A DNA stretch of 64,000 bases, taken from Candidatus Latescibacterota bacterium (GTDB lineage Bacteria > Latescibacterota > UBA2968 > SICM01). The stretch is taken from positions 899,178 to 963,177 of the forward strand of contig CBDCJO010000002.1 in NCBI GenBank assembly GCA_965217865.1, given 5' to 3'. Numbering within the stretch: the stretch's first letter is position 1; each line of letters begins with the position of its first letter. Positions 1 to 1,958 of the stretch are shown in pieces. Below the pieces are notes generated by a model. It worked only from the letters and a program-made list of their open reading frames with translations. It did no database searches and was not told the DNA's origin. Both the position numbers and the translations under genes were made by a program.

Positions 1-356
1 TAATTTGCGACGATGACGAACAACCCCAGAACCGAAATTGTGGTTGAGCCGATTAGAGTAGTGAGCACAGTGACGGAGAGTTTGAATGAGATGGGACTTA
101 ATCCGTGCAGAAGCATGATTAAGCCAACAACAATGAGCCAACCGACAATGAGCCAATATAAGCGGTTTGCGTACGTTTTACGTTGATCGCGGTCCTGAGT
201 GAGATCGTTGATTTCGGCTTCAAGTCGTTGGTTATAAAGTCGAAGCCGTTGGTTATCAAGTTCTTTTTTCTCGTCATCGAACAGACTGACGTCTTGCTGA
301 TCAGGTTCTGGAAGCTTATCAGTCCGGACGGTGCGAAGGTCTTTAAGTTCCGGCAT
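1..356 (-). CDS. hypothetical small membrane protein, 3' end outside the window; candidate toxin partner (PanT-like) of the upstream Panacea-domain gene
   Basis: My own minus-strand translation from the ATG at 356 gives MPELKDLRTVRTDKLPEPDQQDVSLFDDEKKELDNQRLRLYNQRLEAEINDLTQDRDQRKTYANRLYWLIVGWLIVVGLIMLLHGLSPISFKLSVTVLTTLIGSTTISVLGLFVIVAN... It stays open to position 1, so it has no stop in the window and is absent from the ORF track. The start overlaps the 343..852 gene by 14 nt. The N-terminus is charged and coiled-coil-like, followed by two hydrophobic helices. Confidence 0.45.
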   Translation of the reverse strand, partial: MPELKDLRTVRTDKLPEPDQQDVSLFDDEKKELDNQRLRLYNQRLEAEINDLTQDRDQRKTYANRLYWLIVGWLIVVGLIMLLHGLSPISFKLSVTVLTTLIGSTTISVLGLFVIVAN

Positions 357-852
357 TTGCCGAGATCTTCTGTGCAAAGTGTTTCTTGATGATGTTATTC
401 GGAATCACCAAGTTATAGCCATAGGGATTCTTTTTCCTTATTGTATCCCAAGGCCCCCCAGGTTCGTGTGTGAGTTGCGATAGCGACAGCCCAGGCATGT
501 GACCATAGACCTCCCACGCTCGTTCGATGAGTTCCATCGCGAAAGTATCCTCGGGAGGGACGCGCGGCGTGTTCCACTGTAACCTTCTGTGCTCACCGAC
601 ATCCATAGTTTCTAAGGGCCCCATGATGGGCCTACTCCCCCAGACTTTCACTACTTGGTAAAGATCTGGAAAAACCGGTCCCCATCTCCAAGCCTGTGCG
701 TTCTCGGCGCTCAAGGCCCCCTTATCGAATCCGAGGTGCCACCCGTGACTGAAGTACACCAGTTTCTGGATTTTCATCGCGTCTACCGTTTCGCCTGAAG
801 ACTTAGCGATATCCAGGAAACTATTAGCGACTGCTTCGGCCAAGTACGGCAT
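343..852 (-). CDS. Panacea (DUF4065) domain protein, SocA/GepA-like putative antitoxin
   Basis: 169 aa. The segment DAMKIQKLVYFSHGWHLGFDKGALSAENAQAWRWGPVFPDLY matches the conserved core of DUF4065/Panacea proteins as I remember it. The gene is translationally coupled to the downstream small ORF. Confidence 0.7.
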   Translation of the reverse strand: MPYLAEAVANSFLDIAKSSGETVDAMKIQKLVYFSHGWHLGFDKGALSAENAQAWRWGPVFPDLYQVVKVWGSRPIMGPLETMDVGEHRRLQWNTPRVPPEDTFAMELIERAWEVYGHMPGLSLSQLTHEPGGPWDTIRKKNPYGYNLVIPNNIIKKHFAQKISANAGT

Positions 853-1958
853 GATCTTCTCTCCCTTCTAACTTTGAATCAGTTCCTTATACATCAACCG
901 TTTTCCGATCATCCCCGCAACAACGGATTGCATCTGCTTCACGGTATCCACGTCCCGAATACTGCAACGTCCAGCGAATTCATTGACGTAACGCTGCAGA
1001 TGCTTGAGGCTCATTTTGTGATAGGTGCCATAATAGCCACGCTTCAGCAATGCCCAAAAGCTTTCCATACCGTTCGTGTGAGCCTTTTTTCTTACAAACT
1101 CGCCAACGCTGTGCTTCACGGATTTGTGATCAAAGCCGTACATGTTCTGATAGGCCGTTGCATCATCCGTATAGACCGTTGCGCCATCCTTCACATTGTT
1201 GTGGACAAAACCCTGAAGGGTCGCGCCGTCCGTGTGTTCAACTACTTGAGTTCTTACTTTTCGCGTCTTACGATCCTTCGCACCCGCCACGGCAACCTTG
1301 CCTACTGTGCCTCGCCCCGCGTGCAACTTCTTATTTGCATGCTTGTTCTTTTCCCTGCCACCGATATAGGTCTCATCAACCTCAACGGGACCCTCGAACT
1401 TTACCGCCATATCCGTCCCCCATGTTTCACGTAGGCGGTGGAGCATGAACCATGCGGTCTTTTGCGTCACCTTCAAATCCCGATGGAGCTTCATACTGGA
1501 AACACCTTTGAGATGTGTGACACAGATGTAAATCGCAAAGACCCACTTGCGAAGTGGCAGGCGAGATTTCTCTATGACAGTGCCAGTCTTGACGCTGAAG
1601 TAAGACCGGCAATCCGTGCACCAGTAAGGCATGGGCTTGGTATTGGGTACCTCGCGCGTCTTGACGCTTCCACAATGACCACAGCAACGATCCCCATTCC
1701 AGAGCTGCTTTTCAAACCAAATCACCGCGGCCGCTTCATCTGGAAACATGTCGGCCAATTCGAGAATCGAAATTCCCTTGCGGTGAGACTTTCCAGGCGC
1801 TTTCTGTGACATGGCAATTGTCCTTTTTGTTGTTTACTCTCTGTTCTAACAAACAATTTTAAATATAAACAATTGCCTTGCGTTTGTCAAGTTAAATATG
1901 TAATTCCCTTTAAAAGACATGTCCAATTGATGCGGGAATATCACACGGAGACTGCGTT
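853..1958 (-). mobile_element. IS1595-family insertion sequence; this is the maximal interval between neighbouring genes, and the true ends are unresolved
   Basis: The interval contains a single IS1595/ISXO2-like transposase gene. I could not identify clean terminal inverted repeats or a target-site duplication by eye. Confidence 0.45.
868..1812 (-). CDS. IS1595 family transposase (N-terminal zinc ribbon plus ISXO2-like DDE domain)
   Basis: 314 aa. Zinc-ribbon segment CCGHCGS...WCTDCRSYFSVKTGT, followed by KWVFAIY, TAWFMLHRLRE and EVDETYIGGREKNKH. These are typical of IS1595-family transposases. Confidence 0.85.
   Translation of the reverse strand: MSQKAPGKSHRKGISILELADMFPDEAAAVIWFEKQLWNGDRCCGHCGSVKTREVPNTKPMPYWCTDCRSYFSVKTGTVIEKSRLPLRKWVFAIYICVTHLKGVSSMKLHRDLKVTQKTAWFMLHRLRETWGTDMAVKFEGPVEVDETYIGGREKNKHANKKLHAGRGTVGKVAVAGAKDRKTRKVRTQVVEHTDGATLQGFVHNNVKDGATVYTDDATAYQNMYGFDHKSVKHSVGEFVRKKAHTNGMESFWALLKRGYYGTYHKMSLKHLQRYVNEFAGRCSIRDVDTVKQMQSVVAGMIGKRLMYKELIQS

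Follow-up and report, generated by a model that had tools for sequence, protein, structure and literature searches.

A gene for a Panacea-domain protein that overlaps a reading frame for a small membrane protein raises the question of whether the two constitute a toxin-antitoxin (TA) pair of the PanA-PanT type, and how such a pair came to lie directly ahead of a polysaccharide locus in a member of the Latescibacterota. Both genes are found at the left edge of the stretch of 64,000 nucleotides from Candidatus Latescibacterota bacterium that was analysed here, which is referred to as the window (G000:C2:899178-963177; negative window positions denote the genome to the left of position 1). The original prediction, made from the nucleotide sequence alone, had proposed such a pair, and the pair is indeed there, but its place inside an insertion sequence (IS) of the IS1595 family, which occurs in three identical copies in the genome, had been missed. 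The best explanation of the locus, which we hold with fairly good confidence, is a 2226-bp transporter IS of this family, i.e., an insertion sequence with passenger genes, that carries a PanAT-type TA pair as its passenger.

A transporter IS in three identical copies

The borders of the element follow from a comparison of its copies. The genome contains three matches of 100% identity to the initial 900 bases of the window, and when the three sites are compared in register, this identity begins and stops at the same exact points, delimiting a common unit of 2226 bp (window -317..1908; L002 1183..3408), of which window positions 1..1908 represent the larger part. All three copies of this unit are 100% identical, with panA and panT included in each, and therefore point to recent transposition. 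The unit is bounded by imperfect inverted repeats of 26 bp that are identical at 25 of the 26 positions. As judged from the register comparison, the left repeat (IRL, GGGAATTACATATTTAACTTGACAAA) occupies positions 1883..1908 on the minus strand, and its partner on the right (IRR, GGGGATTACATATTTAACTTGACAAA) is located outside the window at -317..-292. All copies are bordered by 8-bp direct repeats that differ from copy to copy, namely TTTAAAAG, CAACTATT (AATAGTTG on the plus strand of the genome), and ATTTAAAT. The first of these is the target-site duplication of the window copy, which is found at 1909..1916 and again immediately left of IRR, outside the window. The empty sites reconstructed for all three insertions are each intact, and the two besides the one in the window are intergenic. 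Between the repeats, the element is organised in the order IRL, transposase gene (tnp), a spacer of 15 nt, panA, panT (with a 14-nt overlap), a tail of about 300 bp, and IRR. Since panA and panT are contained in an identical unit at three sites, they have to be regarded as cargo of the element, and the transposase gene did not insert beside the pair.

The tnp gene (868..1812, minus strand) codes for a DDE transposase of 314 amino acids, which matches the Pfam family PF12762 with an E-value of 1.1e-40 and 139.6 bits (cut-off 27) and the NCBIfam model transpos_IS1595 (NF033547) with 186.8 bits (cut-off 75). A putative N-terminal zinc ribbon of the CxxC...CxxC type scores 15.9 bits against a cut-off of 25.4 for the respective Pfam family (PF12760), and the four-cysteine pattern CGHC...CTDC is visible in the sequence. 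The ends of the element read GGGGATTAC and GGGAATTAC, with GGGGATTAT in relatives, and resemble the end consensus of the ISNwi1 subgroup (GGnnATTA), from which the element would probably be of the ISNwi1 type; this assignment to a subgroup is to be read as a lead only. The IS1595 family is known for 8-bp duplications, an N-terminal zinc finger, and the DDE_Tnp_IS1595 domain (PMC8101967). The DDE transposase, the terminal inverted repeats, the 8-bp target duplications, and the presence of passenger genes inside the repeats all agree with these elements, and the 2226-bp unit is an IS1595-family transporter IS with the PanA-PanT pair as its sole cargo.

The three genes may well be expressed together. 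A promoter scan yielded one strong sigma-70-like site in the sense direction, TTGACA-17-TATATT (1862..1890, minus strand; 11 of 12 consensus matches), whose -35 hexamer lies inside IRL and which reads into tnp, and no promoter-like site was found by this consensus scan ahead of panA. The stop codon of tnp and the ATG of panA are separated by the spacer of 15 nt (853..867, minus strand), which contains the motif GGGAGAG, a likely ribosome-binding site. This narrow gap and the lack of a separate promoter-like site suggest that tnp, panA, and panT are transcribed from the IRL promoter, and such a co-transcription appears plausible from the anatomy of the genes. A further site, TTGACA-17-TAGGAT, is carried by IRR and reads inward (L002 1201-1229, plus strand); it represents a consensus match only, and a transcript starting there would run antisense to a small ORF in the tail of the element and to panT.

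This tail ORF, which is basic and comprises 50-56 codons, is located between panT and IRR (window -298..-128; L002 1219-1389, minus strand; MPRYEFKGATPEALARALRRRP...) and shows no match to any Pfam or NCBIfam family. Its motif KGATPExLARALLR recurs in the six closest relatives of the transposase (L043-L048), where it is encoded on the opposite strand directly after tnp in five cases and forms the N-terminus of a KilA-N protein in the remaining one (L043). Just past the stop codon of panT, the opposite strand also contains a relic of the C-terminus of an HNH nuclease (..PLSNLQLLYGACNRVK; approximately window -77..-30, IS positions 1937-1984). The 48 bp of this relic recur with 81% identity in the tail of another IS1595 element of 1.81 kb in the same genome (GGTDHQDNLQLLCGACNSLKGDR), suggesting that IS tails are shared or recycled among different elements.

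Through the insertion in the window, a gene coding for a cytidylyltransferase-like protein of 231 amino acids (L002 501-1199) had its four terminal codons replaced by IS sequence (..ESILKDMSN to ..ESILKGGLHI). The inserted copy lies 28 bp ahead of an aldolase gene at position 1959, which stands at the head of the polysaccharide locus and is parted by the insertion from the cytidylyltransferase-like gene. The left edge of the polysaccharide locus in the window is thus formed by the IS, and polar effects of the insertion on this locus are possible. Away from the full copies, a solo fragment of about 60 bp from the right-end region of the IS is present at G000:C2:5133317-5133377 with 98-100% identity, which may be the remnant of a deleted copy.

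The overlapping genes and their relation to PanT cluster T3

The panA gene occupies positions 343..852 on the minus strand, exactly as originally located, with its TAA stop codon at 345..343, and codes for a single-domain Panacea (DUF4065/SocA-like) antitoxin candidate of 169 amino acids. The protein matches the Pfam family SocA_Panacea (PF13274) clearly above the cut-off (E 2.9e-13, 51.2 bits, cut-off 25.7) over profile positions 1-112 of 113. It also matches the NCBIfam model SocA_antitoxin (NF047745) over its full length with an E-value of 3.5e-30, but the 105 bits obtained are below the equivalog cut-off of 190, and as judged from its sequence, PanA is a Panacea protein and not SocA itself. 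A search of the PDB sequences with the PanA profile returned only a spurious match to a designed repeat protein, and this sequence-based search did not yield any solved Panacea structure. An alignment with 24 relatives (A2) was assembled for PanA, and its dN/dS values versus relatives range from 0.16 to 0.32.

The second gene starts with the predicted ATG at 356..354 and therefore overlaps the 3' end of panA by 14 nt (343..356, minus strand). Only the first 118 of its 125 codons are contained in the window (1..356, minus strand; whole ORF at G000:C2:899157..899533). The frame, which had been recorded as lacking a stop within the window, ends seven codons further left (21 nt plus the stop codon; ...VIVANYLFPKRP*), which gives a small, complete protein of 125 amino acids and not the beginning of a long enzyme or transporter. 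The acidic N-terminus and the two strongly hydrophobic helices described for this protein are borne out: residues 1-62 are charged, with 16 acidic and 12 basic side chains, and Kyte-Doolittle values above 1.6 (19-residue windows) are reached at approximately residues 63-93 and 95-122, with hydrophobic cores at roughly 66-86 and 97-117. Both hydrophobic stretches quoted before are present. Basic residues flank the helices (RK..NR before the first and KR after the second), and both ends of the protein would probably be cytoplasmic according to the positive-inside rule. An AlphaFold2 model calculated with the family alignment predicts helices at residues 20-86 and 95-120 that form a hairpin (mean pLDDT 71.6). 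A Foldseek comparison of this model with the PDB, as had been proposed, gave no match at E <= 10, a two-helix hairpin being uninformative for a fold search.

Among the homologues of PanT, 30 are close (44-66% identity) and all of them are unnamed. Their alignment (A1) shows a variable acidic N-terminus and a strongly conserved C-terminal half of the pattern QDRxQRKxY..WL...LHGF...F.LS..LIGSTTxSVLGLFxIVANYLFPKR. A profile of the family retrieved 4173 proteins at E <= 1e-3 and 2065 at E <= 1e-10 from 1.84 billion cluster representatives, and the best 150 matches listed are proteins of 80-240 amino acids. The dN/dS values of PanT versus relatives are between 0.08 and 0.20. The homologues, the profile matches, and the low dN/dS show that the ORF is not fortuitous, and the low values for both genes indicate that panA and panT are real and under purifying selection. 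In a tblastn search of plasmids and phages with PanT, no phage match was obtained, and one marginal plasmid match was found (Salinibacter, 26% coverage).

The arrangement of the two genes is conserved well beyond the Latescibacterota. Of 23 loci from species-representative genomes, 22 (L018-L039) have a Panacea gene immediately ahead of the gene for the PanT homologue; these loci span Acidobacteriota, Cyanobacteria, Gammaproteobacteria, Bacteroidota, Verrucomicrobiota, and Bdellovibrionota and include Methylomonas, Methylophilaceae, Opitutaceae and other Verrucomicrobiota, Bdellovibrionales, Alistipes, and Mucilaginibacter. The same order was present in all metagenome and genome contigs that were read (L004-L010 and L012-L015), and the overlap of 14 nt is kept in the closest relatives (L004-L010, L013, and L014). 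Such an overlap suggests a coupled translation of panA and panT. No IS1595 transposase gene was found within 4 kb at any of the 23 species-representative loci, and the occurrence of the pair without such a gene nearby in other genomes argues for an autonomous module that is independent of the IS.

In the survey of Kurata et al. (2022; PNAS, PMC8832971), nine PanA-neutralised toxins were validated, three of which are small, membrane-located proteins with a depolarising effect. The PanT of cluster T3 from E. coli STEC O31 (WP_000019185.1, paired with PanA WP_000287252.1) is toxic, is rescued by PanA, and both depolarises and permeabilises the membrane (Kurata et al., 2022). The protein from the window is connected to this cluster by a search from the family member of Mucilaginibacter (L036), which led to WP_133574935.1 of Pedobacter metabolipauper (P0200), recorded in Dataset S1 of the survey among the toxins of T3, with WP_133574934.1 as its PanA. 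This protein matches the profile of the close family of PanT over its full length with 67.7 bits and an E-value of 4e-17 (Z = 1e6), including the motifs QD..RK.Y and IVANYLF. Cluster T3 in Dataset S1 also includes species of Methylomonas and Mucilaginibacter and a member from V. cholerae marked 'Toxic' (Kurata et al., 2022). As judged from this homology, the PanT candidate is a member of the published cluster T3 family, to which the validated E. coli protein is linked via cluster membership, and the pair in the window is an ordinary further member of the published PanAT family of the cluster T3 type. The earlier statement that the putative toxin matches no recognised family is superseded by this assignment, and the interpretation of both genes as a PanA-PanT pair gains support from the homology of the candidate toxin to cluster T3 as well as from the pairing conserved across phyla.

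A relatedness of PanT to the S_4TM/SLATT group of predicted membrane effectors should be treated as a lead and not as a finding, because the matches are repeated but none of them exceeds its cut-off. The model of PADLOC for the '4TM' CBASS effector is weakly matched by 13 of 22 members of the PanT family (best E 5.5e-4, below cut-off), the Pfam family S_4TM (PF18159) by eight of 22 (best E 8e-4, all under the cut-off of 26.9 bits), and the NCBIfam model SLATT_1 gives an E-value of 0.008 for PanT, corresponding to 16.1 bits versus a cut-off of 41. An hhalign comparison of the family with two genuine S_4TM proteins, which were the only two found in 168 genomes of the phylum, resulted in a probability of 23%. 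Note that one member of cluster T3 is labelled with the CDD entry 'S_4TM superfamily' in Dataset S1 (Kurata et al., 2022).

Proposed function and alternative interpretations

By analogy with the validated E. coli member of T3, the candidate toxin would most likely form a helical hairpin in the inner membrane, oligomerise there, and collapse the membrane potential. PanA would most likely neutralise it by direct binding, probably at its soluble cytoplasmic N-terminal helix, and the overlap of the genes would couple the synthesis of both proteins. As a passenger of the IS, the pair would most likely be an addiction or stabilisation module, delivered with each insertion, that favours the retention of the element or of the replicon on which it lands, and it may possibly contribute to phage defence as well. 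Several observations weigh against parts of this explanation. The homology to T3 is established through a single bridging T3 member, with the validated E. coli PanT linked only indirectly, and eight of the 25 PanTs tested by Kurata et al. (2022) were not toxic in E. coli. The promoter scan detected about as many consensus sites in the whole region as in shuffled sequence, and neither PanA nor PanT was present in any of the 80 closest relatives of the transposase from metagenome contigs, in a search whose positive control worked. Moreover, the loss of one of three identical copies cannot trigger post-segregational killing, which makes the addiction benefit weak in this genome.

The pair might alternatively serve mainly as an abortive-infection or phage-defence module, whose toxin is freed or activated by a phage cue and which is merely spread by the IS. 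This possibility overlaps with the TA passenger explanation, as it involves identical parts and deviates solely in the function under selection, and we consider it unlikely as the principal role. It is in line with the repeated weak similarities of the PanT family to the PADLOC 4TM, S_4TM, and SLATT_1 models, with the CDD label of the T3 member mentioned above, and with the literature that ties TA systems to phage defence. However, all of these effector matches stay below the curated cut-offs, the probability obtained with hhalign is low, and no phage-borne copy was recovered by tblastn. Likewise, no defence island turned up around the three insertion sites, which did not receive a dedicated examination in this respect.

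It appears still less probable that the membrane protein is not a toxin but a harmless membrane partner or anchor of a PanA-type protein, which would make the pair something other than TA-like. The non-toxic fraction among the PanTs of Kurata et al. (2022) would be compatible with such a role, and the unusual conservation of the second transmembrane helix (LIGSTTxSVLGLFxIVANYLFPKR) fits a specific contact with another protein or a substrate as well. These points are opposed by the affiliation of the protein to the same family as T3, which contains the validated toxic member from E. coli and the one from V. cholerae marked 'Toxic', and by the strict order of antitoxin before toxin with overlapping or tightly spaced genes, which is typical of type II TA operons.

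A role of PanA and the membrane protein in transposition or regulation of the IS, as its accessory factors and not as an independent module, is very improbable. The operon that the pair probably shares with tnp and the recurrence of the tail-ORF motif in the six closest transposase relatives could be taken in favour of it, but 22 of the 23 species loci contain the pair and lack any IS1595 transposase gene within 4 kb, and the transposase occurs without the pair in all 80 of its closest relatives, which demonstrates that both are separable in either direction. The least credible alternative, a chance insertion of an IS1595 element next to a resident TA pair with displacement of its promoter, may seem to be suggested by the mere 15 nt between the tnp stop and the PanA start and by the lack of a transposase near most pairs of other genomes, but it is refuted by the presence of panA and panT between the inverted repeats of an identical 2226-bp unit at three unrelated sites, each showing its own target duplication and an intact reconstructed empty site. 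The IS1595 transporter IS carrying a PanAT-type TA pair stays the preferred explanation.

Exchangeable cargo and comparison with known systems

Three different PanA modules are found beside IS1595 transposase genes in this genome, each with a different partner. At L016 (G000:C2:3473599-3475259; 800-2460), a PanA of 155 amino acids is encoded in an 8-nt overlap with an ORF of 88 codons, whose product contains a coiled-coil N-terminus and one C-terminal transmembrane helix, and the pair is convergent with a gene for an IS1595 transposase of 310 amino acids. A left end like GGTAATTAAAAGATAAAGGCTTGACAA is visible at this locus, and a matching right end was not found. At L017 (G000:C2:1904789-1906779; 190-2180), a Panacea gene (142 amino acids), a different partner ORF of about 160 codons without a match to any Pfam family, and a truncated IS1595 transposase gene are enclosed by the inverted repeats GGGGATTAAAAGTATTAGGCTTG (GGGGATTAAAAG...), and the locus looks like a decayed cargo-carrying IS with another type of cargo. 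A fourth Panacea-domain gene (145 amino acids, G000:C2:1607973-1608410), which shows the best Pfam score of the genome with 77.6 bits, adjoins an OrfA fragment of the IS3 type and has no obvious overlapping partner. The other IS1595 element of about 1.81 kb mentioned above is present in three near-identical copies (G000:C2:5273875-5275683, 1566612-1568419, and 3961650-3963471) and carries an ORF for a Cys-rich protein of 108 amino acids as cargo, and at least seven copies of about 1.0 kb match only its transposase part with approximately 90% identity, indicating that cargo-bearing and cargo-free IS1595 siblings coexist in the genome.

Beyond this genome, the combination of transposase and pair was recovered on two foreign contigs. 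One of them (L011) contains the genes in the order tnp-panA-panT, with tnp and panA frameshifted and decayed, and the other (L013) a transposase gene of 65% identity followed by panA and panT and an end of the sequence ...GGATAATCCCC. The inverted repeats of the window element were not found on either contig with up to five mismatches; the terminal motif ...ATAATCCCC, with which both contigs end as the window element does, is all that is shared. Among 30 related genomes, similarity to the element was confined to the transposase gene, and the cargo was not found. The closest of the 80 transposase relatives from metagenome contigs carry other cargo, namely a KilA-N protein, an ORF for a membrane protein of 189 amino acids, and a methylase-like gene. 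A lineage of PanAT-carrying ISs had been expected; instead, both genes are lacking in all 80 of these relatives, which indicates that the pair is not integral to this transposase lineage and that the cargo is exchangeable.

The relevance of the locus lies in its context, i.e., in a complete and recently active IS with a PanAT pair as its only cargo, and no description of PanAT as IS1595 cargo was found in the literature searched. It has already been reported that many PanATs are located near transposase genes, and an 'IS1595 family transposase' next to PanA is recorded as pT35 under 'False Positive Cluster' in Dataset S1 (Kurata et al., 2022), so that the association of IS1595 with Panacea proteins was dismissed as noise by the principal published survey. 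This entry, together with the three PanA modules beside IS1595 genes in the genome studied here, points to the testable idea that the transport and reshuffling of Panacea TA modules may involve small ISs as well, and not plasmids, prophages, and Tn3 transposons alone. The further proposal that PanAT modules regularly travel on IS1595 transporter ISs, the TA pair being integrated into the operon of the transposase, is tentative and, in our view, rather doubtful. If it applied, the pair would be expressed from the IRL promoter, each burst of transposition or host entry would install an addiction or defence function, and IS1595 elements could be one engine of the partner swapping of Panacea antitoxins known as 'hyperpromiscuity'.

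Compared with the published PanATs of cluster T3, the pair in the window shares an antitoxin consisting of a Panacea domain alone, the A|T order, in which the antitoxin gene precedes the toxin gene at a short distance or overlaps it, and a broad but patchy phyletic spread, Methylomonas and Mucilaginibacter being common to T3 and the loci described here. It differs from them in being only about 30-45% identical to the family members from Bacteroidota and Gammaproteobacteria, in its overlap of 14 nt, given a range of -26 to +67 nt for the T3 entries compared here, in its location inside an IS, and in a toxicity that is predicted only. The type VI TA system SocAB of Caulobacter is similar insofar as PanA aligns over its full length with the SocA_antitoxin model; a membership in this system was rejected because of the score below the equivalog cut-off and because PanA is partnered by a protein of two transmembrane helices and not by SocB.

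With regard to the mobile element, the IS1595 transposase with its putative zinc ribbon, the 8-bp duplications, the short inverted repeats starting with GG, and the placement of passenger genes between the transposase gene and one end all correspond to other IS1595 transporter ISs, whereas the cargo is set apart as a complete TA pair that follows the transposase gene after 15 nt in the same orientation. A similar situation is known from the Tn3 family, where type II TA pairs are the immediate neighbours of the transposition genes (Lima-Mendez et al., 2020; mBio, PMC7157771). The element of the window is a small IS of the cut-and-paste type, in contrast to the replicative Tn3 transposons with their resolvase and res site, and the TA families involved are different, PanAT not being among those embedded in Tn3 according to the discussion of Kurata et al. 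(2022). The TA pair adjoins the transposition genes in both cases and does not lie among distal passenger genes, and for the Tn3 pairs, a coupling of the TA genes to transposase expression and a stabilisation of the element have been proposed (Lima-Mendez et al., 2020).

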